Source: Dehalococcoidia bacterium (GTDB lineage: Bacteria > Chloroflexota > Dehalococcoidia > SHYB01). From it: a DNA stretch of 64,000 nt. Positions 17,609 through 41,691 of the stretch are shown here, one piece after another. The notes below the pieces were generated by a model that was not told the origin of the DNA, searched no databases, and saw only the letters and a program-made list of their open reading frames with translations. The translations under genes and the position numbers were made by a program. Every line of letters starts with the position of its first letter. Within the stretch, counting starts at the first letter, position 1. The stretch lies in NCBI GenBank assembly GCA_965207995.1, contig OZ242299.1, positions 788,863-852,862 of the forward strand, in the 5' to 3' direction.

Positions 17609-17624
17609 AGGTCTAGCTAGACCT
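17609..17624. terminator. perfect 16-bp palindrome AGGTCTAGCTAGACCT between convergent gene ends (possible bidirectional terminator hairpin)
   Basis: Read directly; overlaps the stop codon of the giant minus-strand gene and lies 18 nt after the stop of the plus-strand hydrolase gene; no U-tract. Confidence 0.25.
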
Positions 17625-20600
17625 CTTCGCCGTCGACGTCGATGTCGAACAGGCCGTCCTGGCCGTCGTAGCCCACCGCGACGTAGTAGAGGCCCGTGCT
17701 CGCCGGTTGGTAGACGACGGTGACACTCGAACCGCTGCCGCTGGAAGTGCCGGCGATCAGGTCGCCGTTGCTGTCGTAGATTCCGACGATCTTGACCTGT
17801 GTCGCGCGGTGCTTCTCCGGGACTTCGGCGCGCTCCGAGACCACCACGGTGTACTCGTATCCCTGGTCCATCTCGACCTTGAACCAGTCCTCGTCGCGGT
17901 CGTCGCCGTTCATGTCCCCAAGGAAGCCGCCGCTCGGGCCGTAGCCGTTGTGCTTGCTGGGGGCGGTGTACAGCTTACGAAGCGTGCTCGTGTCCCCGGG
18001 CGTGTCAAGGTCGCCGTAGCCGTCGGGCCCACCGGCATAGGGGTACCTCCGCTCGCCCTCGTACATCATGCAGATGTTGTTGACGCGGACCTTGATCTGG
18101 TACGTGCCGGTGCCGCCGCTTCCTCCAACCTCGATCCGGAAGGGGCCGGGGCTGCCCCACCACCAGCCTCCCAGGCTGTTCTCCCCGTAGCCACTGTCGG
18201 AGACGTGTGGGCTGTATTTGGCCCCCTCCGTCCCTTCCACGGCCTGAACGGAGATGAGTTCGGGATCGGCGAGGGTGAGGTTGCCAGGATGGGTGTCCCG
18301 GCCCAGCATGTCGCGGCCGTCCACGCCGATGACCTCGATGATGTAGTGCCGGTAGGGATCCGGGTCGAAGGTCCAGAAGGCCTTTTCGCCCGCTTGGGTG
18401 ATCTCGCCTATTTCGTCCAAGATGATGATCTCAGTGGCCAGGTTGTCGCACTCGGCGTTCGCCAGGGTGACCACCGCCGTACCGGGATCTCCAAGGACGA
18501 CCCCACTGGGCAGCGGCGTCTTGAAGCCGAGCCGCACCTTCTCGCCGCTGTCCTCGACGTTGTCGTCGAAGGCGACCACGGTGAAGGACTTTTCGTCCTC
18601 TCCCTGGTTGAAGGTCAGCGTCGTTGGCGCGCCCGACCAGTCTTCGGGAACGGCGCCCGCCATCGCCTCCGCGGTCACTTCGATGACCAGCCGCGACGGG
18701 GCCGGCTGGCTTAGGTGCACGACGACCGTGGCGTCTTCGCCGCCCTCGGTGGCCATGTACATATCGGAGCTGAAATAGACCTCGGTCTCGTCGTCGATGA
18801 CGGTGATGTTGACACTGCCCACGCTGATGCCGCTGTAGTCGGTGTCCGTGGAGGCCGCCGAGTGGGTGATGGTGGCCCTCTCCGCCAGCGCGTCGTCGTC
18901 CTGCTCGCCCGAAACCGTCACCGTCTGCTCGTCGTCCCAGTTGGAGTCGGTGAAGGTGAGCTCCGTCTCGTCGACGGATACGTTGGAGCTGCCCGACTTG
19001 GTGATGGTGATGACTACGTTGGCCGTGGGCTGCGAGGTCAGCACCACCGTGTAGGTGTTGCTGCTCCCCTCGTTGATCGTCAGCGAGGTCTGGGAGACCT
19101 TCACGCTCGCCCCGTCGTCGTCGTTGATGGAGATAACCGTCTCGTCGGGCGACACCGCGTCTACCCGGTCCAGCGTACTGGTGTCGAAGCTCAACTTCAC
19201 CGATTCTCCGTCGTCGTCCAGGCTGTCGTCGGTGGCGATGAAGTCGACGATGACTTCGGTCTCCCCGGTCTGGAAGGTCACGTTGTTCCCCAGGGGCGTG
19301 TAGTCGTTGCTGCTCGCGTCGTCCTGCTCGGTGGTGATGAGGGGGATGATCACCTGCCGCTCGGGGTCGGCGTTCAGCTTCACCTTGACCTCGACCGTGC
19401 TCCCCTCGTTGACGGAGTAACTGTCCAGCTCGAAGCTCACCTCGACGAACGGGTCGTCGTCGTCGTCGATACGGACCGTCGCCGCGTTCGTGGCCCCCTC
19501 GCTGACTCGGTCCGGGAAGTCGCCGGTATTGAACCTGAGCAGCACCGACTCGTTGTCGTCGTCCACCTCGTCATGTTCCGCTACGAAGGTGATGGTCTTC
19601 TCTGTCTCGCCACTCTCGAAGGTCACCTCTTGGGGCACCGCGTAGTCGGAGGCGCTTGCGCCGCCCTGCTCGCTCGCCGTGATGGAAACGACGACTTGCC
19701 GCTCGGGATCGGCGTTCAGCTTCACCTTCACCGCGACCTCGTTCTCCGCGACGTTGGGGGTGCTCGTATCGTCACTCTCCGCCACGTTGTACGTCGCCTG
19801 CCCGAAGCTCACCTCGACGGGCGGGTCGTCGTCGTCGTCGATGCTGACCGTCGTCTCGGGCGTTGCTCCCACTTCGACCCGGTCCAGCGAGCTGGTGTCA
19901 AAGCCCAGCTTCACCGACTCATCATCGTCGTCCACCGTGTCGTGGACCGCGGTGAAGGTGAAGGTCTTCTCCGTCTCCCCGTCCTCGAAGGTCACGTCGG
20001 CGGGCACGGTGAAGTCCCCGTCGCTCGCCCCGCCTTGCTTCAACTTGGTGATGGGGATGATCACCCGGCGCTCGGGATCGGCGCTCAGCTTCACCGTCAC
20101 CGTGACCTCGTTCTCCGCGACGTTGGTGGTGGTCGGATCGTCGCTCTCCGCAACTGAGTAGTCGGCTAGCTCGAAGTACACCGCCACGTGAGGGTCGTCG
20201 TCATCGTCAATGCTGACCGTCGTCTCGGCCGGGCTGCCATCGCTGACCCGGTCCAGCGAGCTGGTGTCGAAGCCCAGCTTCACCGACTCATCGTCGTCGT
20301 CCACCGTGTCCTCGACCGCGGTGAAGGTGAAGGTCTTTTCCGTCTCTCCGTCCTCGAAGGTCACGTTGGCGGGCACGGTGAAGTCCCCGTCGATCGCCCC
20401 GCCTTGCTTGGCCTTGGTGATGGGGATGATGACCTGCCGCTCAGGGTCGGCGCTCAGCTTCACCGTCACCGTGAGGTCGTCGCCCTCGTTGACGCTGTAG
20501 GCGTCGAGCTCGAAGCTGACCTCAACGGGCGGCACGTCGTCGTCGTTGATGGAGATCGTCGTTTCGACCACGGTCCCATCGCTGACGCTGTCTAACTCAC

Positions 20601-23523
20601 TGGTGTCCAAGGCCAGCTTCACCGACTCGCCGTCGTCGTCGATCGTGTCCTGTTCGGCGGCAAATGCGAACACGTGCTCAGTCTCGCCGTTGTTGAAGCC
20701 GACGACCGTGGGCAACGTCAAATAGTCATCCCTGGTCGCACCGTCCTGATCGGTTTTCACGATGGGAATGATCAGGTACCGCTCAGGGTCCACATCCAGG
20801 GTCACCTTGATTGTCACCGTGCCGCCTTCGTCGACTTCGTAGTTGGCCTCAGCGAAGCTCACCGTGACCGGCACATCCTCGTCGTCGATGGTCGTCACCT
20901 TGACGCTCCCGGCGGCGAAGTTGTTGTAGTCGGTGTCCGTGGAGGCAACGGTGTGGGTGATCGTGCCTTCGTCGTCGAGGTGGTCATCGTCCTGGTCGGC
21001 GGTGACGATGACCGTCTGCTCCTGGTTCCAGTCGGAGTCGGTGAAGGTAAGGGGCGTGGTGGCGTCAACAGATATATCGGGGCCGCTGGGCACGTTGACG
21101 GTTACCGTGACGTCGGCCGTGGGCTGGGAGGTCAGCACCACGGTGTAGGTGTCGGTGAGACCCTCTTCGATGGTGAGGCTGGGGGGCTCGATGGTGACGC
21201 CGGCGCCGTCGTCGTCGTTGATGCTGACCGTTGTCTGGGCGATGGTCCCGACACTGATGCGGCTCGGCAGGTCGGAGCCGAAGCTCAGCCTCACCGACTC
21301 CCCGTCGTCATTGAGCGTGTCCTGCGCCGCGGTGAAGGTGAACGTCTCCTCCGTGTCGCCGCTCGCGAAGGTCAGGGTCTCGGGCACGCCCGAGTAGTCG
21401 GCGGGGCTGTTCACGCCACCCTGATCGCTCTTGGTGAGGCGGATCTCCACCCGGCGCTCGGGATCGGCGCTGAGCGTCACCGTCACCTCCACCGTGTCCC
21501 CCTCGGCGACAGAGTAGGCAGCCTTGCCGAAGTTCACCTTGACGAACGGGTTATCGTCGTCGTTGATATCGATCGTGGCCTCGCCGTTGGTCCCCTCCGT
21601 CACCGCGTTGGGGAGGGTGCCGAAGCCCAGCTTCACCGACTCGTCGTCGTCGTCCACCGTGTCCTGGCGCGCGGTGAAGTTGAAGAACTTTTCCGTCTCC
21701 CCGCTCAGGAAGACCACGTTGCGGGGCACCCCCGAATAGTCGGAGCCGGTCGCGCCGTCCTGTTCCACCTTGTTGATAGGGATGACCACGCGGCGCTCGG
21801 GGTCTTCGCTGAGGCTGACCTCAACCCTCACGAGGTCGCCCTCGTCAACGAAGTAGGTGGCCTGCTCGAAGGTCACCGTCACCGGCACGTCCTCATCGTC
21901 GATGACGTCCACCTCGACGCTGCCCACGCTGATGCCGTTGTAGTCGCCGTCCGTGGAGCTAGCGGTGTGGGAGATGGTGGCGGACTCGTCGAGGTGGTCG
22001 GCATCGTCGTGGGCCGCCGTTACTCTCACCGTCTGCCTGTGGCCCCAATCGGAGTTGGTGAAGGTGAGCGTCGTTTCGTCGGTCGAGACGTCGGAACTGC
22101 CGGTCCTGGAGATGGTGATGACGACGTTGGCCGTGGGCTGGGAGTTCAGCACTACCGTATAGTCCCGGCTTCCGCCTTCGTTGATCGTGAGCGTCGTGGG
22201 GGAAACGATCACACCGGCGCCGTCGTCGTCGTTGATGCTGACGGTCGCCGTGGCGGTAGTCCCTTCGCTGACCTCGTCCAACTGACTGGTGTCGAAGCCC
22301 AAGGCAACCGACTCTCCGTCATCATCCAGCTTGTCCTGGTACGCGGAGAAGATGAAGGTTCTCTCCGTCTGCCCGCTCCTGAACGTCACGTCCTCGGGGA
22401 CGCCGGAATAGTCGTCGCTGCTCGCGTCCCCCTGCTCGGTCTTGGTGATGGGGATGACGACCTCTCGCTCAGGGTCCTTGTCGAGCGTCACCGTGACCCT
22501 GACCGTGTCTCCCTCGTTCACCGAGTAAGTGGCGGACTTGAAGTTCACCTCGACCGGCACTTCCTCGTCGTCGATCACTTTCACGCTGAGGCTGCGCACG
22601 CGGACGCCGTCGTAGTCGGCGTCGGTGGAGCTAGCCGTGTGCGAGATGGTGGCGGTCTCGTCGAGGTAGTCGTCGTCCTGCTCGGTGGAGACGGTGACCG
22701 TCTGCGGGGCGTCCCAAGTGGAGTCGGTAAAGGTGAGCGTCGTCTCGTCTACAGATACGTCGGCGTCGGTTGGCGTGCCGACCGTGACGACGACGTCGGC
22801 GGTGGGCTGGGAATTCAACCTCACGGTGTAGGTGTCTTCTTCACCCTCGTCGATGGTCAAACTGCTTGGGGAGACCCGCACGCCGACGCCATCGTTGTCG
22901 GTGATTTTGACCATCGCCTGGTTGTTGGGGCCCAAGGTCACCGCGTCGGGCAGCGGTGAGCCGATCCCCAGCGCGACCGCCTCTTCGTCGTCGTCCAGCA
23001 TGTCCTCGGTCGCCGCGAAGTCGAAGGTCTGCTCTGTCTCCCCGCTCTCGAAGATCACCTGGGTCGGTATACCCGAGTAGTCGGAAGGAGTGATGCCGCC
23101 GTACTGGGTCTGGGTGATGGGGATCACCACTTGGCGCCCGGGGTCGCCATCGAGCATGACCTTCACCGACACCCGGCTCCCCTCCTCGACGGCGTAGGTG
23201 GTCTGCTCGAAGCTCACCGCTACCTCTCTGATAGCCTCCGGGCCGTCGTCGTCGATGACGGAGATGGTGGTCGCCTTGATGGTGCCGGCGGAGACCGCGT
23301 TGGGAAGCTCTCCCAGGTCCAGCCGCAGCGACTCATCGTCGTCGTCCGAGACGTCCTGCGCCGCGGTGAAGGTGAAGGAGCTCGACGTCTCCCCGCTCTC
23401 GAAGGTGACGCTGGACGGCACGCCCGAATAGTCGGCGGACGTCAAGCCACCCTGTTCGGTCGCGGTAATGGGGACCACCACCTGCCGCTCCGGGTCCGCG
23501 CTGAGCGTCACCCTCACCACCAC
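17617..23523 (-). CDS. giant secreted Calx-beta repeat protein, C-terminal 1,968-aa portion (after the frameshift) with two C-terminal pre-peptidase (PPC) domains
   Basis: About 11 Calx-beta-like modules (F..Y.V.EG…L[SD].DPER.V.IPI……DY……V.F..GE.E..F.F.A..D..DDD.E) alternating with four ~105-aa modules (L.SQPTA.V..T……V.…LTFT..NW…QTV.V.A..D.D..DE..TI.H). The last ~270 aa hold two PPC-like domains (…DWFKVEMDQGYEYTVVV…GTSSGSGSSVTVVYQPASTGLYYVAVGYDGQDGLFDIDV). The first codon is GTG inside a Calx-beta domain, so this ORF is the continuation of 23333..25750. Confidence 0.8.
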   Translation of the reverse strand: MVVRVTLSADPERQVVVPITATEQGGLTSADYSGVPSSVTFESGETSSSFTFTAAQDVSDDDDESLRLDLGELPNAVSAGTIKATTISVIDDDGPEAIREVAVSFEQTTYAVEEGSRVSVKVMLDGDPGRQVVIPITQTQYGGITPSDYSGIPTQVIFESGETEQTFDFAATEDMLDDDEEAVALGIGSPLPDAVTLGPNNQAMVKITDNDGVGVRVSPSSLTIDEGEEDTYTVRLNSQPTADVVVTVGTPTDADVSVDETTLTFTDSTWDAPQTVTVSTEQDDDYLDETATISHTASSTDADYDGVRVRSLSVKVIDDEEVPVEVNFKSATYSVNEGDTVRVTVTLDKDPEREVVIPITKTEQGDASSDDYSGVPEDVTFRSGQTERTFIFSAYQDKLDDDGESVALGFDTSQLDEVSEGTTATATVSINDDDGAGVIVSPTTLTINEGGSRDYTVVLNSQPTANVVITISRTGSSDVSTDETTLTFTNSDWGHRQTVRVTAAHDDADHLDESATISHTASSTDGDYNGISVGSVEVDVIDDEDVPVTVTFEQATYFVDEGDLVRVEVSLSEDPERRVVIPINKVEQDGATGSDYSGVPRNVVFLSGETEKFFNFTARQDTVDDDDESVKLGFGTLPNAVTEGTNGEATIDINDDDNPFVKVNFGKAAYSVAEGDTVEVTVTLSADPERRVEIRLTKSDQGGVNSPADYSGVPETLTFASGDTEETFTFTAAQDTLNDDGESVRLSFGSDLPSRISVGTIAQTTVSINDDDGAGVTIEPPSLTIEEGLTDTYTVVLTSQPTADVTVTVNVPSGPDISVDATTPLTFTDSDWNQEQTVIVTADQDDDHLDDEGTITHTVASTDTDYNNFAAGSVKVTTIDDEDVPVTVSFAEANYEVDEGGTVTIKVTLDVDPERYLIIPIVKTDQDGATRDDYLTLPTVVGFNNGETEHVFAFAAEQDTIDDDGESVKLALDTSELDSVSDGTVVETTISINDDDVPPVEVSFELDAYSVNEGDDLTVTVKLSADPERQVIIPITKAKQGGAIDGDFTVPANVTFEDGETEKTFTFTAVEDTVDDDDESVKLGFDTSSLDRVSDGSPAETTVSIDDDDDPHVAVYFELADYSVAESDDPTTTNVAENEVTVTVKLSADPERRVIIPITKLKQGGASDGDFTVPADVTFEDGETEKTFTFTAVHDTVDDDDESVKLGFDTSSLDRVEVGATPETTVSIDDDDDPPVEVSFGQATYNVAESDDTSTPNVAENEVAVKVKLNADPERQVVVSITASEQGGASASDYAVPQEVTFESGETEKTITFVAEHDEVDDDNESVLLRFNTGDFPDRVSEGATNAATVRIDDDDDPFVEVSFELDSYSVNEGSTVEVKVKLNADPERQVIIPLITTEQDDASSNDYTPLGNNVTFQTGETEVIVDFIATDDSLDDDGESVKLSFDTSTLDRVDAVSPDETVISINDDDGASVKVSQTSLTINEGSSNTYTVVLTSQPTANVVITITKSGSSNVSVDETELTFTDSNWDDEQTVTVSGEQDDDALAERATITHSAASTDTDYSGISVGSVNITVIDDETEVYFSSDMYMATEGGEDATVVVHLSQPAPSRLVIEVTAEAMAGAVPEDWSGAPTTLTFNQGEDEKSFTVVAFDDNVEDSGEKVRLGFKTPLPSGVVLGDPGTAVVTLANAECDNLATEIIILDEIGEITQAGEKAFWTFDPDPYRHYIIEVIGVDGRDMLGRDTHPGNLTLADPELISVQAVEGTEGAKYSPHVSDSGYGENSLGGWWWGSPGPFRIEVGGSGGTGTYQIKVRVNNICMMYEGERRYPYAGGPDGYGDLDTPGDTSTLRKLYTAPSKHNGYGPSGGFLGDMNGDDRDEDWFKVEMDQGYEYTVVVSERAEVPEKHRATQVKIVGIYDSNGDLIAGTSSGSGSSVTVVYQPASTGLYYVAVGYDGQDGLFDIDVDGEEV

Positions 23524-31622: not shown

Positions 31623-33116
31623 ATGTCCATTGCAGCAATCCTCAACGCCGCGCGCCGCGCGTTGGGCGAGCGCCACGCCTCCGCGTGGGTCGCCGGCGGC
31701 GCGGTCCGCGACGCCCTCCTCGGCCGCGAGCCCGCCGACCTCGACCTCGCCGTCGACGTCGACGACGTTGGCGAGCTGGCCCGCGCCGTCGCCGAAGCCT
31801 CCGGGGCCTCCGCCGTCGCCCTCGACGCCGAACGCGGCATCCACCGCATCGTCTCCCGCGACGACGGCTCGTCCGTCGACCTGACCCTCGCCGCGGAAGG
31901 CATCGGCCCCGACCTGCTCCGGCGCGACTTCACCATCAATGCCATGGCGCTGCCTCTGCAGCTCTGGCCCAACGCCGCGGCGCCCCTCGTCGTCGATCCC
32001 GCCGGCGGGCTGGACGACCTGCGAGCAAAGCGCCTCCGGGCCGTCAGCGAGGAAGGCCTCGCCGCCGATCCGGTGCGCATGGTGCGGGCAGTCCGTCTCT
32101 GCGCCGAGCTCGGCCTCGAACTCGAATCCCAGACGGCGGCGTGGATCACCTCCGGCGCGGCGCGCATCGCGTCGAGCGCGCCGGAGCGCGTGCGGGACGA
32201 GCTCGTCCGGCTCATACGCCCGCCCGGCGCGGCGCGCCATCTGCGCCTCCTCGACCGCCTCGGCCTGCTGACCCAAATCATCCCCGAGCTCGAAGCGGCG
32301 CGCGAAACCACCCAACCCAAGGAGCACTACTGGAACGTCCTCGAACACTCGATAGAAGCCGTCGGCAAGGTCCAAGGCGTCCTCCGCGTCGAAGCGCTCG
32401 ACCCCGAACCCGAACCGGCCGTCCCCTGGGACTCCCGCGACGACGACCACGCCGCCGAGCCCGTCGGCGGCGGCCGGACGAGAGCCGACGCCCTCCGCCT
32501 CGCCGCCCTCCTGCACGACGTGGCCAAGCCCGCCTGCAAGACCGTCGAGGCCGATGGGCGCATCCGCTTCCTGGGCCATGCCAAGGAGGGCGCGGTCATG
32601 ACCGAACAGGTCATGGAGCGGCTCCGCTTCTCGAACCGCGAGCGGCGCTTGGTCGCCGCGATGGTCCGGGAGCATCTGCGGCCCGGGATGATCACTCGCG
32701 AGCCGGGCGGCCCGAGCCGGCGGGCGCTCCACCGCTATTTCCGCGACGCCGGCGACGCGGCCGTCGACACGCTCTACCTCAGCTTCGCCGACTACCTCGC
32801 GGCGCGAGGCCCGCGGTTCGACCCGGCCGACTGGGCCGCCTACGCCGAAAGGATTCATGGTATCCTTGTCGCCTACTATTCGAGAGAGAGCGAGGCCACC
32901 GCTCCCCGGCTCGTCGACGGCCACGACCTCATGGGAGCGCTCGGCCTCGAACCCGGCCCGATCGTCGGTCGGCTTATGGAAACCCTGAGAGAAGCGCAAG
33001 CCGCCGGAGAGATCGAGACTCGGCCTCAAGCCATCGCCCTCGCCGGTAAGCTGCTCGCCGAGGGCTCCGCGGCTAGCTCCCCAAAGCGCCCCCAAAGGAG
33101 CCGGCGTGCGGATTAG
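31623..33116 (+). CDS. cca: CCA-adding tRNA nucleotidyltransferase / poly(A) polymerase family protein with HD domain
   Basis: 497 aa; Pol-beta nucleotidyltransferase head (GGAVRDALLGREPADLDLAV…RRDFTINAMA) and HD domain (…LLHDVAKP…). Confidence 0.8.
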   Translation: MSIAAILNAARRALGERHASAWVAGGAVRDALLGREPADLDLAVDVDDVGELARAVAEASGASAVALDAERGIHRIVSRDDGSSVDLTLAAEGIGPDLLRRDFTINAMALPLQLWPNAAAPLVVDPAGGLDDLRAKRLRAVSEEGLAADPVRMVRAVRLCAELGLELESQTAAWITSGAARIASSAPERVRDELVRLIRPPGAARHLRLLDRLGLLTQIIPELEAARETTQPKEHYWNVLEHSIEAVGKVQGVLRVEALDPEPEPAVPWDSRDDDHAAEPVGGGRTRADALRLAALLHDVAKPACKTVEADGRIRFLGHAKEGAVMTEQVMERLRFSNRERRLVAAMVREHLRPGMITREPGGPSRRALHRYFRDAGDAAVDTLYLSFADYLAARGPRFDPADWAAYAERIHGILVAYYSRESEATAPRLVDGHDLMGALGLEPGPIVGRLMETLREAQAAGEIETRPQAIALAGKLLAEGSAASSPKRPQRSRRAD

Positions 33117-34443
33117 TCGAAACCGCATCTTCCTTGCGATCATCGTCGTCGTCTTCACGCTGGCGATCCTGTCTCTGGTTTTCCGCACCGTCAACATCGG
33201 CGGCTTCGAGCGCGGCTCGGACGAGGGCCCGCTCGGCCTGCGGCTCGGCCTCGACCTGCAGGGCGGCACGCTGCTCATCTATCGCGCCGACGACCCCAAC
33301 GTCACGGCCGACCAGATCGAGGGCGTCGTCGACGTCATCAGCCGCCGCGTCAACGCTTTCGGCGTGACCGAACCCCTGATCCAGCAGAGCGGCAGCAACG
33401 AGATCATCATCCAGCTCGCCGGCATCACCGACGTCGGCGAGGCCATCGATCTCATTGGCGGCACCGCCCAACTCGACTTCCGCGAATGCCTCGACCCGCA
33501 GTGCTCGCAGAACCAGCCCGCCCTCGCCGAAGGCAACGGCGGCGTTACCAAGCACCTCACCGGCGAGTTCCTGCGTCCGACCTCAGCCGTGGTTTCCGAC
33601 CCCACAACAGGGCTCCCCGTGGTGACGTTCGACTTCAATGGCGAAGGCTCGCGCATGTTCGAGCAGATCACCCGGCGCAACATCGGCCAGCCTTTGGGTA
33701 TCTTCCTCGACGACGGCCTGATCTCTAGCCCAACGGTCCAGGCCGTCATCGCCGGCAGTGGGCGCATCACCGGCCTCACGCGCGGCGACGCCCGGATCCT
33801 CGCCATTCAGCTGAACGGCGGCGCGCTGCCGGTGAGCATCAGCGTGGTGCGGCAAGACGAAGTCTCCGCAACCTTGGGCGAGGACTCCCTGAACAGGAGC
33901 TACGCCGCCGCCGCAATCGGGCTGGGGCTGGTGATGCTCTTCATGCTGCTCTACTACCGGCTGCTCGGGCTGATCGCGGTAGCCGCCCTGGTCTTGTACA
34001 CCGTGTTGATCTTGGCCGCCTTCAAGATCGTGGGGGTCACCCTGACGCTATCCGGCCTCTCCGCCTTCGTCGTCTCCGTCGGTATGGCCGTGGACGCCAA
34101 CGTCATCATCTTCGAGCGTATGCGCGAGGAGCTGCGCGCGGGCCGCACGCTGGGCGCGGCCATCGAGGCCGGCTTCGACCGCGCCTGGTCGGCCATCCGG
34201 GACAGCCAGATCACCACCTTCATCGTCATGCTCATCCTCTGGTGGTTCGGCGACCAACTCGGCGAGCCGCGCGTGATCGGCTTCGCCATCACCCTCATGC
34301 TCGCGATCATCGCCAGCGTCTTCACCGCCTTCGTCGTAACCCGGACCATTCTTCGCATGCTCGTCGGCATGCCGTTCTCGGGCAATACCAGGCTCTTCGC
34401 CGACATTCGCGAGACGCAACGCACCACGCCGGCGGTGAGTTGA
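33106..34443 (+). CDS. secD: protein translocase subunit SecD
   Basis: 445 aa; N-terminal TM helix, periplasmic P1 domain, C-terminal RND-like 6-TM bundle with conserved …DANVIIFERMREE… motif; overlaps the cca stop by 11 nt. Confidence 0.85.
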   Translation: MRISRNRIFLAIIVVVFTLAILSLVFRTVNIGGFERGSDEGPLGLRLGLDLQGGTLLIYRADDPNVTADQIEGVVDVISRRVNAFGVTEPLIQQSGSNEIIIQLAGITDVGEAIDLIGGTAQLDFRECLDPQCSQNQPALAEGNGGVTKHLTGEFLRPTSAVVSDPTTGLPVVTFDFNGEGSRMFEQITRRNIGQPLGIFLDDGLISSPTVQAVIAGSGRITGLTRGDARILAIQLNGGALPVSISVVRQDEVSATLGEDSLNRSYAAAAIGLGLVMLFMLLYYRLLGLIAVAALVLYTVLILAAFKIVGVTLTLSGLSAFVVSVGMAVDANVIIFERMREELRAGRTLGAAIEAGFDRAWSAIRDSQITTFIVMLILWWFGDQLGEPRVIGFAITLMLAIIASVFTAFVVTRTILRMLVGMPFSGNTRLFADIRETQRTTPAVS

Positions 34444-34514: not shown

Positions 34515-37220
34515 GTGTTCGAATTTGTAGCCAACCGGCGGCTCGCCTTCCTGTTTACCGGGCTCGTCATCGCCGCGTGTGTGGTCGCGCTCGTCGCGCC
34601 GCCGCGGCTGCCATTCGGCCTCGAGTTCTCCAGCGGCACCTCGCTGACCGTCGAGTTTGAGCAGCCCGTCGCCCTTGAAGACGTCCGGGCGCGCCTCGCC
34701 GAGATCGGCCACGGCGACGCCTCGGTGCAAGCCCTGAACGAAACCACCTTCTTCATTCGCACCGAATTCGTCGAGGAAGACCTGCTGACCCGGCTCACCG
34801 ACGCCTTCGGTCCGCTGACGCCCACCGGCTTCGAACGGGCCACCGACATGGCGGAGACGGTGCGCTTCGTGGACACGGTCGCGGCGGAGGACGTGCTGGC
34901 GGCCTTCGGCGACGAACCCGCCGAGGGCAGCCGCGTCGAGGTCGCGGGCGCCGACCGCTTCCTTGTCGCCGCTCCCGGCGCAGGCGAAGACCAGCTGGCC
35001 GAGCTCGCCGCCGCATGGGAGTCGATCGGGACGGTGACCCGCACCTCGTTCGACGAGAACAGTTTCGCCGAAGTGATGACCTTCCCCGAGGACACCGTTC
35101 TCACCCAAGGGGAAATCGATACGATCGTCGCCGGCCTTGGCCTTGCCGAGAAGGTGACGGCCGTCATCGAGGACTCCACCACCCTCTTCGTTGCCGCACA
35201 GGCACCCGGACCGGACGACGTGACCGCCTTTGTCGACACGTTGACCGGCCGCTTCGGCGAGGCCGAGCGCACCCCAATCGACCTCGAGCAAGACCCGCTC
35301 TTTATTCTGGAATTCGCCGGCACGGTGACTCTTGACGAGATCCTTGAAGCGCTCGTCGTCTTGCCCGTCAACGCAGCCGCGGGCAGCGGCGTGACGGTTA
35401 CCCAGCAGGAGGGTGGCGACTTCTTGCTCCAAGGAGAGGAGCTGGCCGCCAACGCCGACATCGTCGCCGCCGACATCGAGAACGCCGTCGGATCGATCGA
35501 GTGGCGCGGCTTCGGTGGTGAGGATGACCTGCTCTTCTCGCTCGATCTCGGCACGCCGGTCATCACATCCTTCGACTTCGAAAACGAGGTCGGTGCCCAG
35601 GGGCGGGCCGAACTCACCTCGTCGCAGGTGAGCGAGAACCGCTTCGGCAGCGTTGATGCCGCCATCACCGAAGAGGAGCTGGCGGACCTCGTTGAAGGGC
35701 TGGAGCTCCGCTTCGGGCTTGCCGACGTCACCACGTTCGACCCGGCGGACGACCTCGCTCTGGCCCTCACGTTCCCTGAAGAGGCATCTGTCGATCTCGA
35801 CACGCTGCGGGCCGAGATCAGCCTGCTCGGCCTCGACGAGGATGTTGCCGCGATAGAGACCGAAGGGAGCTTCGTCCTGCTGGGCGAAGCCTTCTCTGAA
35901 GACACGCGGCAGCAGCTCCTCGACGACCTCACAACCCGTTTCGGCGAGTTCGCGCAGGAGCCCGTCGCGGTGAATCCGGGGGCGGCCTTCATCGTCGACT
36001 TCGGCGCCGGCTACGGTCCCAGCGACATCGCGGAGGCCGTCGACGGCGCGAGCGACGGCGCGGCTTCGAGCGTTTTTCGCCCCTCAGCGGGCTCCTACGC
36101 GGTCTTCGGCCATGATGCGGCGGACCTCAACGAGAGTATCGTGGCCGCGGTCGAGGAGGCGTTGGGGCGCGCGGAGACCGGTCCGATCGACCCGGCCGAG
36201 GAGGGCTTGTTCACCGTCCGGCTCACCGACGCCGAGCAGTCCGTCCAAGCGGTGCGGAACCTGCTCATCATTCAGCAGGACGGGCCGGACGAGGACGGTC
36301 TGGTCGAGTTCTTCATCGGGGGCAACCGGTTGAGCTCTGAGCAGCAGGGGTTGATTCTCTCCACCCTGCAGAGCGAGTTCGGCGAGATCGTCTCCACTCC
36401 CTTTAGCCACACCACCCACGTGGCGCAGACGCTCGTTTTCGAGCGCCCCGTCTCTCCCGAGGCGGTGGTGAACGAGCTCGACGACGTGGGGTACGTCGAC
36501 CTGACGGCCGAGGCACGGGGCAACGGCATCTTCATCCGGGGCAGCCGCGCCGAGTCCGACGGACGCAGCGTGCTGCTCACCGCGCTGGGGAGCCTCGCGC
36601 CCATCAACACCGAGGCGGTCGACTTCACCTCGGTCGATGCCGAGATCGCCAAGCGCAGCATCCTGAATACCTTCTGGGCCGTGCTGGCGGGTACCGTGGG
36701 CATCCTGCTCTACATCTGGTGGGCCTTCCGGCGCATCCCGCGCTCCTACCGCTACGGCTTCGCCGCCATCGTGGGGCTGAGCCACGACGTGTTGATCGTG
36801 CTCGGGGTCTTCGGGCTGCTGGCGAAGTTCACCGGGGTGGAAGTCAACTCCCTCATGATCGTGGGCGTCCTGGCGGTGATCGGCTACAGCGTGAACAACA
36901 CCATCGTGGTCTTCGACCGCATCCGCGAGAACGTGATGAAGAGTCCGGGCCGCCCGTTCGAGACCTCGGTCAACGTCAGCCTGAACGAGACGCTGACGCG
37001 GAATCTCAACACCACGCTGACCACCGCCGCCGCCATCCTCGCCGTCCTCCTCTTCGGCGGCGAGACAATCCGCGACTTCATGGGCGTCCTGCTCACCGGC
37101 GTGATCGCGGGCGCGTACAGCTCCCTGATGCTCGCGCCGAATATCCTCGTGGCCGCGGAGAAGGGCGAGCTGCCCAAGCTCCGCATCCCCTTCCGCTCGC
37201 GCCGCACCGCAACCGCCTGA
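34515..37220 (+). CDS. secF: protein translocase subunit SecF with greatly expanded acidic periplasmic region (901 aa)
   Basis: TM1 (LAFLFTGLVIAACVVALVA) then canonical SecF head (FGLEFSSGTSL…), then ~550 aa of Asp/Glu-rich sequence with a recurring L..L...FGE motif at about 150-aa spacing, then the canonical SecF 5-TM C-terminus (…YGFAAIVGLSHDVLIVLGVFG…SVNNTIVVFDRIREN…). Confidence 0.8.
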   Translation: MFEFVANRRLAFLFTGLVIAACVVALVAPPRLPFGLEFSSGTSLTVEFEQPVALEDVRARLAEIGHGDASVQALNETTFFIRTEFVEEDLLTRLTDAFGPLTPTGFERATDMAETVRFVDTVAAEDVLAAFGDEPAEGSRVEVAGADRFLVAAPGAGEDQLAELAAAWESIGTVTRTSFDENSFAEVMTFPEDTVLTQGEIDTIVAGLGLAEKVTAVIEDSTTLFVAAQAPGPDDVTAFVDTLTGRFGEAERTPIDLEQDPLFILEFAGTVTLDEILEALVVLPVNAAAGSGVTVTQQEGGDFLLQGEELAANADIVAADIENAVGSIEWRGFGGEDDLLFSLDLGTPVITSFDFENEVGAQGRAELTSSQVSENRFGSVDAAITEEELADLVEGLELRFGLADVTTFDPADDLALALTFPEEASVDLDTLRAEISLLGLDEDVAAIETEGSFVLLGEAFSEDTRQQLLDDLTTRFGEFAQEPVAVNPGAAFIVDFGAGYGPSDIAEAVDGASDGAASSVFRPSAGSYAVFGHDAADLNESIVAAVEEALGRAETGPIDPAEEGLFTVRLTDAEQSVQAVRNLLIIQQDGPDEDGLVEFFIGGNRLSSEQQGLILSTLQSEFGEIVSTPFSHTTHVAQTLVFERPVSPEAVVNELDDVGYVDLTAEARGNGIFIRGSRAESDGRSVLLTALGSLAPINTEAVDFTSVDAEIAKRSILNTFWAVLAGTVGILLYIWWAFRRIPRSYRYGFAAIVGLSHDVLIVLGVFGLLAKFTGVEVNSLMIVGVLAVIGYSVNNTIVVFDRIRENVMKSPGRPFETSVNVSLNETLTRNLNTTLTTAAAILAVLLFGGETIRDFMGVLLTGVIAGAYSSLMLAPNILVAAEKGELPKLRIPFRSRRTATA

Positions 37221-39754: not shown

Positions 39755-41629
39755 CTAGAGGCCGTACTTGGTCAGGCGGGCGATGGCGCCGCGCGCGGCG
39801 TCGTACTGCTCCGTGCTCACCGGCACGTAGTCCACGTCGGCGACCAACGCCGGCGCGTTCTCGATGTAGAACCGGACGAACTCACGGACGTGCGCCTTCT
39901 CCACCAGCGAGTCCACCCGCACGTAGATGAACAGCGGCCTCGTGAGCGAATAGTCGCCCGAGAGGATCGTCTCCTCGTTGGGAACGACGCCGTCCACGCC
40001 GAGCACCTTCAGCTTGTCCGCGTTCTCCGCGTAGTAGGCGTACCCGAAGTAGCCCTTCGCGCCCTTCTCGCCTGAGATGCCCTGGACCAGTACGTTGTCG
40101 TCCGAGGACGCGGTGTAGTCCGAGCGGGAGGCCCCCTCCTCGCCGACCACCTCGTCGGTGAAGAAGTCGAACGTGCCCGAGTCCACGTCGGGGGCAAAGA
40201 TGGTCAGCTCCTCGTCTGGAAACGAGGCGCGCACCTGGTTCCAGTTGTTCACCGTCGAGCCCGGCTCGTAGATCATCTTCAGCTCTTCGATGGTGAGATC
40301 GTCCACGAAGTCGTTGTCCGGGTTTACCACGACGGAAAGGCCGTCCCAGCCGACCAGCATCTCGACGAACTCGATGCCGTTCGCGGCGCAGAGTTCAAGC
40401 TCGGAGCTCTTGATCGGCCGCGACGCGTTCGAAATGTCCGTCTCCCCGGCGCAGAAGCGCTTGAAGCCCCCGCCCGTGCCCGATACGCCGACCTGCACCC
40501 GAACGCGCCCGTTCACCGAGCGGAACTCCTCGGCCACCGCCTCGGAGATCGGGAAGACCGTGCTCGACCCATCGATGCCCACGTCGCCAGAGAGGCCGCT
40601 CTCGATGGCGGGCACGCCAAGGACGCGGGCGATGGCGCCGCGGGCGGCGTCGTATTGCTCCGTGCTCACCGGGACGTAGTCCACATCGGCGACAAGCTCA
40701 GGCGCGTTCGCGATGTAGAACTTCACGAACTCCGCCACGTGCTGCTTGTCCCGCAAGGAGTCCTCTCGCACGTAGAGGAAGAGTGGCCTCGTGAGCGGGT
40801 AATCGCCCGAGAGGATCGTCTCTTCGTTGGGAACGACGCCGTCCACGCCCAGCACCTTCAGCTTGTCCGCGTTCTCCGCGTAGTAGGCGTAACCGAAGTA
40901 GCCCTTCGCGCCCTTCTCGCCGGAGATGCCCTGGACCAGCACGTTGTCGTCCGACGACGCGGTGTAGTCCGAGCGGGAGGCCCCCTCCTCGCCGACCACC
41001 TCATCGGTGAAGAAGTCGAACGTGCCCGAGTCCACGTCGGGGGCGAAGATCGTCAGCTCTTCGTCGGGGAACGAGGCGCGCACCTGGTTCCAGTTGTTTA
41101 CCGTCGAGCCGGGCTCGTATATCGCCTTCAGCTCTTCGATGGTCAGCTCGTCCACGAAGTCGTTATCCGGGTTCACCACGACCGAAAGGCCGTCCCAGCC
41201 AACCAGCATCTCGACGAACCCGATGCCGTTGGCGGCGCAGATCTCAAGCTCGGAGCTCTTGATAGCCCGCGACGCATTGGAGATATCCGTCTCGCCCGCG
41301 CAGAAACGCTTGAATCCGCCGCCCGTGCCAGACACCCCCACCTGCACGCGGACCTTCCCGGCCACCGAGCGGAACTCCTCGGCCACCGCCTCGGAGATGG
41401 GGAAGACTGTGCTCGACCCGTCGATGCCCACGTCGCCCGAGAGGCTGCTCAGATCTTCCTCGGGCTCCAAGGCCCCGGTTGTGGACGACGTCCCCTGCGG
41501 GTTGGGTGTTGCTGAAGGGTCGTCGCTGCCGCAGGCGGCGACCACCAGAGCAACCACGGCCAACAGCGCTGCGAGCATCGCCGCCTTCCTACGCAAGAGC
41601 GTAAGAGCCGGGGATCTGCGTTCCTTCAT
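39755..41629 (-). CDS. pstS: lipoprotein consisting of two fused, near-identical PstS-like phosphate-binding (periplasmic binding protein) domains
   Basis: Lipobox LVVAAC after [27 protein letters not shown]. Two consecutive ~280-aa halves ([25 protein letters not shown]…[17 protein letters not shown]) about 95% identical at protein level and about 95% at DNA level (period about 840 bp). Confidence 0.75.
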
Positions 41630-41691
41630 TCCGTACCCCTTTGGCGCTTCGCGCCACCTTCGCATTGACCAAGCCATGGTTGGCCCGCCGC

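Follow-up and report, generated by a model that had tools for sequence, protein, structure and literature searches.

How does a SecF protein come to be 901 amino acids (aa) long, when canonical members of the family have about 300? The question is raised by secF of a Dehalococcoidia bacterium (assembly GCA_965207995.1), which lies within a 64,000 nt stretch of contig OZ242299.1 (positions 788,863 to 852,862, hereafter the window) and forms one uninterrupted open reading frame (ORF) with a GTG start at 34515..37220 of the forward strand. SecDF is an ion-driven helper of the Sec protein-export channel, and canonical SecF has a single loop between transmembrane (TM) helices TM1 and TM2, containing one ferredoxin-like P4 domain of about 70 aa that is seen as a small and static base, paired with its P1 counterpart in SecD. 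A first-pass annotation of the window had noted an acidic, repetitive insert in this protein, and proposed that P4 had been duplicated in tandem to give four to five copies. We find the extracytoplasmic loop between TM1 and TM2 to consist of nine head-to-tail P4-like units (aa 41-712), an architecture that profile comparisons and structure prediction together make solid. The best explanation, and one we hold to be probable, is a genuine SecF of the SecDF complex; with lower confidence, its nine-P4 array may act as an enlarged extracytoplasmic platform.

The P4-like units of the SecF loop

Judged from its sequence, the protein is a genuine SecF, because it exceeds the curated cut-off of TIGR00966 (238.1 bits against 160, in two stretches, the better of which, aa 645-879, is the one listed and corresponds to profile positions 49-277), carries the Pfam domains Sec_GG and SecD_SecF_C, matches solved SecDF and SecF chains in a phmmer search (3AQP, 5XAN and 5MG3_F), retains an arginine in TM11, and is encoded next to secD in a conserved gene order. 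With the canonical proteins of Thermus thermophilus (3AQP, 2RRN), Deinococcus radiodurans (5XAN) and Escherichia coli (5MG3_F) it has in common TM1, the GG motif, a ferredoxin-like P4 and the five-helix bundle that brings the total to six TM helices (Table 1), and the TM11 arginine (R829), the neighbouring secD and a score above the family cut-off are likewise shared. The N-terminal head and the C-terminal bundle are intact, as the first-pass annotation had stated. Residues P33, G35, E37, F38, S40 and G41 of the GG motif are invariant in an alignment of 18 homologues, and the motif runs directly into strand 1 of unit 1. The protein differs from canonical SecF in having nine P4 units instead of one, and an asparagine instead of an aspartate in TM10. 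Set against the usual description of SecF as a one-P4 protein, its loop agrees in fold and homology, and departs from it in copy number. In Pfam, only PF07549 and PF02355 are matched, leaving aa 53-694 (~640 residues) unannotated.

Hydropathy shows no hydrophobic segment from aa 37 to aa 715, and the whole array therefore lies outside the membrane, anchored at both ends. Each unit is 72-78 aa long (~74 aa) and is predicted to adopt a β-α-β-β-α-β fold. The units share only 11-42% protein identity, so profile methods were needed to compare them; searching SecF against itself with blastp (word size 2, E 100) yielded nothing off the diagonal. Nine unit profiles were cut from the alignment of 18 homologues (A1) and compared pairwise by hhalign. 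All pairs (36/36) were significant, with scores of 25.7-103 and P values of 1.5e-4 to 2.4e-21, and the alignments were in register, most of them spanning nearly the whole unit. The best scores of the controls were 18.9 (108 column-shuffled), 14.4 (36 reversed) and 11.4 or less (units against the TM block), and the internal repeats that had been suspected in the protein are therefore significant.

A full-length AlphaFold2 (AF2) model built on A1 shows exactly nine β-α-β-β-α-β units at the same borders, with a mean predicted local distance difference test score (pLDDT) of 79.7. Block means are 79-94 over aa 41-700, except for single dips to 71, 74 and 75. The gap from the last strand of one unit to the first strand of the next is 5-7 residues, and pLDDT stays high through these junctions. 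The fold of unit 6 was also obtained when this unit was modelled alone. A hidden Markov model (HMM) of canonical P4, made from 17 ordinary SecFs with one P4 each, recovers every unit but unit 7, eight in total and in register. In the opposite direction, a profile of the units (A3), searched against 1.84 billion representative proteins, gives one match per ordinary SecF of ~300 aa, at aa ~40-110, and one per SecDF fusion at about aa 500-565, which is the P4 position in the solved SecDF fusions. Unit 1 is the closest of the nine to canonical P4, and unit 9 is the part that TIGR00966 aligns as P4. Given the hhalign results between units, the AF2 fold, and the matches of both A3 and the canonical-P4 HMM, the insert consists of eight extra copies of P4 (~600 aa), predicted to be folded, and is not a disordered acidic linker.

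The repeat had originally been perceived through a motif, (L/V)xxLxxxFGE, said to recur about every 150 aa at roughly aa 92, 240, 395, 480 and 640. Such a motif is present, at aa 240, 393, 469 and 615 and, as LTRLTDAFGP, at ~91, where it marks the junction of helix 2 and strand 4 in units 1, 3, 5, 6 and 8 only. Since just five of the nine units carry it, the period appeared to be ~150 aa, and not the ~74 aa found here, and the units were undercounted. The proposed tandem duplication of P4 itself agrees with the hhalign comparisons, the AF2 model, the A3 search and the canonical-P4 HMM, but with nine copies in place of four to five. Scans of the secF DNA for direct and tandem repeats returned only chance-level matches of 19-31 nt, which indicates that the duplications are ancient; a recent duplication was rejected on the same ground.

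Table 1. Features of secF and secD, in window coordinates. AF2 secondary structure is given as strands (E) and helices (H); conservation is the majority fraction; hhalign values without P are scores; i-E, independent E-value.
Feature	Position	Strand	Residues (aa)	Evidence and remarks
secD	33106..34443	+	445 in total	Ordinary; TIGR01129 336 bits, cut-off 244
TM1	34527..34595	+	5-27	AF2 helix 5-27; hydropathy; Arg-Arg on cytoplasmic side
SecD/SecF GG motif (PFGLEFSSGT...)	34608..34670	+	32-52	Pfam PF07549 (Sec_GG) 21.3 bits, cut-off 20.3
Unit 1	34635..34850	+	41-112	Canonical-P4 HMM 57.9 bits, i-E 4.6e-20; AF2 E41-48 H54-63 E70-73 E78-84 H89-98 E101-105; conservation 0.70
Unit 2	34851..35066	+	113-184	hhalign against other units P 1e-5 to 4e-11; canonical-P4 HMM i-E 1.2e-5; AF2 E112-118 H124-131 E140-145 E148-152 H158-169 E173-178
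Unit 3	35067..35291	+	185-259	VDTLTGRFGE; hhalign up to 97 (with unit 6); AF2
Unit 4	35292..35516	+	260-334	Helix 1 split and extended; hhalign; AF2; canonical-P4 HMM i-E 6.4e-4
Unit 5	35517..35744	+	335-410	VEGLELRFGL; hhalign 103 with unit 6; AF2
Unit 6	35745..35969	+	411-485	LDDLTTRFGE; modelled alone; canonical-P4 HMM 20.8 bits
Unit 7	35970..36191	+	486-559	Most divergent; hhalign 77-83 with units 3, 5 and 6; AF2 fold; missed by canonical-P4 HMM
Unit 8	36192..36425	+	560-637	LSTLQSEFGE; hhalign; AF2; canonical-P4 HMM i-E 2.3e-5
Unit 9	36426..36650	+	638-712	Adjoins TM2; canonical-P4 HMM 14.3 bits; hhalign; AF2; conservation 0.71
TM2-TM6 bundle	36639..37160	+	709-882	Five helices (AF2); SecD_SecF_C PF02355 163 bits, aa 695-881

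Conservation and relatives of the expanded protein

Homologues with the same architecture fall into at least 36 protein clusters (882-1047 aa) that are collinear over the full length down to 35% identity. They come from NCBI, ENA, JGI and Logan assemblies, some on contigs of 1.4-3.6 Mb, including a 3.58-Mb chromosome, and the related loci belong to metagenome-assembled genomes (MAGs) of Dehalococcoidia/Chloroflexota. Their N-terminus is conserved as MFEFV or MIDFV, and the same start position, with GTG or TTG, was found in all five of the loci that were fetched. All full-length clade members examined by hmmsearch have nine units, whereas the forms of 1047/1048 aa have eleven, their extra ~146 aa being a two-unit insertion. 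In three eleven-unit SecFs (P0034, P0036 and P0060; 1044-1048 aa), the two additional P4-like units form an insertion where unit 3 stands in the nine-unit form.

The ratio of nonsynonymous to synonymous substitutions (dN/dS) relative to the three closest loci amounts to 0.20-0.28 for the array, compared with 0.03-0.10 for the TM part, indicating that the array is under purifying selection that is less strict than in the TM part. Conservation is unevenly spread over the loop, units 1 and 9 being the two best conserved (Table 1), with values of 0.52-0.59 for the middle units. The array goes back to ancient tandem duplication, and has since been retained unit by unit under such selection.

The SecFs nearest to this clade share 49-59% identity in the TM part, derive from Dehalococcoidia and SAR202 MAGs, and are of ordinary length (300-323 aa). 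The expansion is therefore clade-wide, a point on which the first-pass annotation had advised a comparison with relatives, though it is limited to a sub-lineage. SecFs with two units (378-395 aa) occur elsewhere, and a separate SecF lineage, recognized by the TM4 sequence GFSVHDT, has more divergent loops that are also longer, with about 3-6 units (434-708 aa). Several large, repetitive proteins matched by the unit profile (P0093, P0101, P0123, P0183 and P0205; SprB, YadA, a helicase and others) were discarded as unrelated repeat proteins. No account of tandem P4 arrays in SecF or SecD was found in the open-access full-text literature, and within the reach of these searches the multi-P4 array is apparently undescribed. 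In public databases the expanded proteins are annotated plainly as SecF; for the protein studied here, no Pfam family matched the P4 region, hence the large unannotated segment under an ordinary name.

P4-like units are also repeated on the partner subunit. In related Chloroflexota, SecDs of 836-925 aa (P0076, P0071, P0073 and P0108) carry units of the same kind in the loop after the GG motif; in contrast to the window, SecD is here the subunit that bears the array, which is interleaved with P1. Five extra units are clear in P0076 (845 aa, locus L007, 5001-7538), while in P0071, P0073 and P0108 two profiles match at 3 to 7 places. Locus L007 has the same order of peptide deformylase (def), CCA/poly(A) polymerase-type nucleotidyltransferase (cca), secD and secF genes as the window, and the SecF partner of P0076 is ordinary (320 aa, one unit), so that by sequence comparison its arrangement is the reciprocal of the one described here. 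That an array can sit on either partner suggests that it serves the SecDF complex as a whole. Taken with the long-kept rows of nine P4 units, the arrays on SecD indicate that the P4 module can build large extracytoplasmic structures on the translocon.

In T. thermophilus D340, D637 and R671 are essential, and the E. coli counterparts of the last two are D213 and R247 (PMC5974789). The essential aspartate of TM4 is retained in the SecD of the window (D330, nt 34093-34095), as is the TM11 arginine, essential elsewhere, in its SecF (R829, nt 36999-37001). At the TM10 position, where T. thermophilus, D. radiodurans and E. coli carry Asp, an asparagine is found (N795, nt 36897-36899, in GYSVNNT), and every homologue with nine or eleven units has it. 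Some SecFs of ordinary length in the homologue hit list (P0084, of 308 aa, P0171 and P0179) share this Asn, and other expanded SecFs keep the Asp; a link between this substitution and the P4 expansion was accordingly rejected. Going by this distribution, the asparagine is a lineage variant and gives no ground for excluding the protein from the SecF family. It may mean that some Chloroflexota arrange ion coupling differently.

Possible roles of the array

In a Foldseek search of the full model against the PDB, SecDF structures were followed by the resistance-nodulation-division (RND) pumps AcrB, MexY and AdeB, all matched through the TM part and so uninformative on the units. RND pumps do have loops, between TM1-2 and TM7-8, that are built of repeated β-α-β-β-α-β modules (PN1, PN2, PC1 and PC2 in AcrB), and their porter subdomains belong to the same superfamily as the array, the loop being made from the same repeated module. 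They differ in having two porter modules per loop in a compact, substrate-binding head, whereas here nine follow one another linearly in one loop, and neither a docking subdomain nor trimer-forming features were found in the SecF of the window. An RND efflux permease of the AcrB type was also rejected on score (21.8 bits for TIGR00915 against a cut-off of 940, a weak match of the TM part) and on the number of TM helices, which is six and not twelve.

A functional analogy may be the POTRA arrays of BamA, TamA and TpsB, which are likewise tandem α/β domains of ~75 aa on the far side of a membrane translocation machine. By analogy, this likeness suggests a possible role of the array as a guide or holdase. 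POTRA domains are not homologous to the P4-like units: they have a β-α-α-β-β fold and a free N-terminal end, whereas the units are β-α-β-β-α-β and anchored at both ends of the row, and no POTRA family of Pfam was matched in this SecF at E ≤ 1.

The host lineage is generally taken to lack an outer membrane and to have unusual envelopes. In the platform reading, the array, anchored at both ends, would form a closed arch or hairpin. Units 1 and 9, the best conserved, adjoin the GG motif and TM1 on one side and TM2 on the other; they probably retain the usual function of P4, in which it pairs with the P1 base of SecD and relays motions of the TM bundle. The seven middle units (2-8) would form a fairly rigid extension reaching up to roughly 100 Å from the membrane, and the platform might, although we have low confidence in this step, guide or hold emerging exported chains further from it. 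During the SecDF cycle, the eight-stranded sheet made up of P4 and the P1 base can turn into a barrel (PMC5974789), which raises the question of whether these sheet-to-barrel transitions propagate along the array. A bolder and rather doubtful extension is that P4 arrays are an unrecognized, recurrent Sec module of Chloroflexota, borne by SecF or by SecD depending on the lineage, as a long arch or arm moved by the ion-driven SecDF motor that serves as a POTRA-like extracytoplasmic chaperone or conveyor. If true, P4 would have an active role, having so far been seen as a passive base domain. The array also raises the question of how exported proteins are handled after SecYEG in cells presumed to be without an outer membrane.

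Several points weigh against the platform. The AF2 model has a predicted template modelling score (pTM) of only 0.57, and the geometry of the arch, as well as the choice of the units that would contact SecD, is inferred. The middle units evolve faster than the rest of the protein, as would also be expected of a part whose role is merely structural or under loose constraint. The genome may also have a second, ordinary secF, although the 64-kb window contains none. Finally, with Asn in place of the TM10 Asp, the ion-coupling mechanism may differ from that of the canonical complex.

The results fit equally a rigid stalk that sets the distance of Sec/SecDF to a surface layer (an S-layer or wall polymer), or that meets a partner there, without any contact with the substrate. 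Short, regular linkers with high pLDDT across the junctions would suit such a spacer or tether, as would the anchoring of both ends, which would give a defined arch, and a spacer would predict middle units less conserved than the terminal ones. In E. coli, SecDF is reported to span the periplasm and connect with the BAM complex through its periplasmic domains (PMC7695460). However, the number of units is fixed at nine across 35-100% identity, and nothing in the conserved neighbourhood (def, cca, secD, secF, a cation-diffusion-facilitator (CDF) transporter and an aminotransferase) stands out as a partner gene; we regard a spacer as unlikely. Less likely again is a runaway duplication, tolerated by the loop and without a function of its own. 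That different SecF lineages have loops of 2, 3-6, 9 and 11 units, and SecD has arrays too, suggests that the loop readily accepts units, and dN/dS is 3-7 times higher in the array than in the TM part. Yet its absolute value is that of purifying selection, each of the nine units has its one-to-one orthologue in homologues as distant as 35% identity and none has been lost from the full-length members, all nine are predicted to be well folded, and a useless exported segment of 600 aa in a 2.8-Mb genome should decay or vanish. An inert expansion is disfavoured for these reasons.

The acidity of the insert, stressed in the first-pass annotation as richness in Asp, Glu, Ala and Leu, invites a third explanation, in which the array would bind cations (Ca2+ or Mg2+) or act as a layer of electrostatic repulsion at the export site. 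The composition is as was noted (aa 56-645: A 13.1%, E 11.0%, L 10.2%, D 8.6%; 116 D+E vs 25 K+R). The array has a net charge of -102 (19.5% D+E, 4.3% K+R) and an isoelectric point (pI) of ~4.05, and every unit contributes -8 to -16. While true of this protein, acidity is no property of the architecture: net charge ranges from -19 to -103 among nine-unit homologues, the least acidic being P0033 (-19) and P0035 (-27), and reaches -110 in eleven-unit ones. The proteome of the window is itself acidic, with a median pI of 5.3 over 42 ORFs and a very low Lys content. Acidity is strongest in the proteins that are presumably exported (pI 4.0-4.5), among them a PstS-like protein (pI 4.32) and a protein with Calx-beta domains (pI 4.05). 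Because charge is not conserved with the architecture and the local proteome is acidic, acidity was rejected as the point of the insert; it seems to reflect the lineage or the habitat, and a charge-based function is very improbable. An artefact, whether two genes joined through an error in sequencing or assembly or an insert of disordered, low-complexity sequence, is refuted. It would agree with the failure of self-blastp to find internal matches and with the lack of Pfam annotation for aa 53-694, but the reading frame is uninterrupted and its base composition uniform (GC by codon position 0.68/0.44/0.88, the third-position value of 0.88 matching neighbouring genes), the region is predicted with high confidence to be folded, and secF has no DNA repeats able to mislead an assembler. 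The same collinear architecture recurs in independent assemblies, the 3.58-Mb chromosome among them, and in at least 36 clusters; this establishes a single gene and settles the doubt that the first-pass annotation had left on this point.

Gene neighbourhood and other acidic proteins of the window

The end of secD and the start of secF are separated by 71 nt on the same strand, and the pairing is kept in the five fetched loci (L001-L005). All five (5/5) share the order def, cca, secD (~445 aa) and nine-unit secF, followed by the CDF transporter gene and then by a class IV aminotransferase gene on the opposite strand. SecD is ordinary, as had been noted, with the GG motif, the first P1 domain, the P1 head and the C-terminal TM bundle all present, and the P4-unit profile gives one weak, partial match to it only.

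A saline or marine habitat would fit the acidic proteome of the window. A 1968-aa protein (17617-23523, reverse strand; 20.6% D+E) contains about ten Calx-beta domains and is probably a large secreted or surface protein. The PstS-like phosphate-binding protein (39755-41677, reverse strand; 640 aa) is matched twice by PBP_like_2 and contains an in-frame tandem duplication, with 274-aa copies at 40628-41449 and 39779-40600. Identity between these copies is 93% for the protein and 90% for the DNA, and the duplication is therefore much younger than the SecF array.

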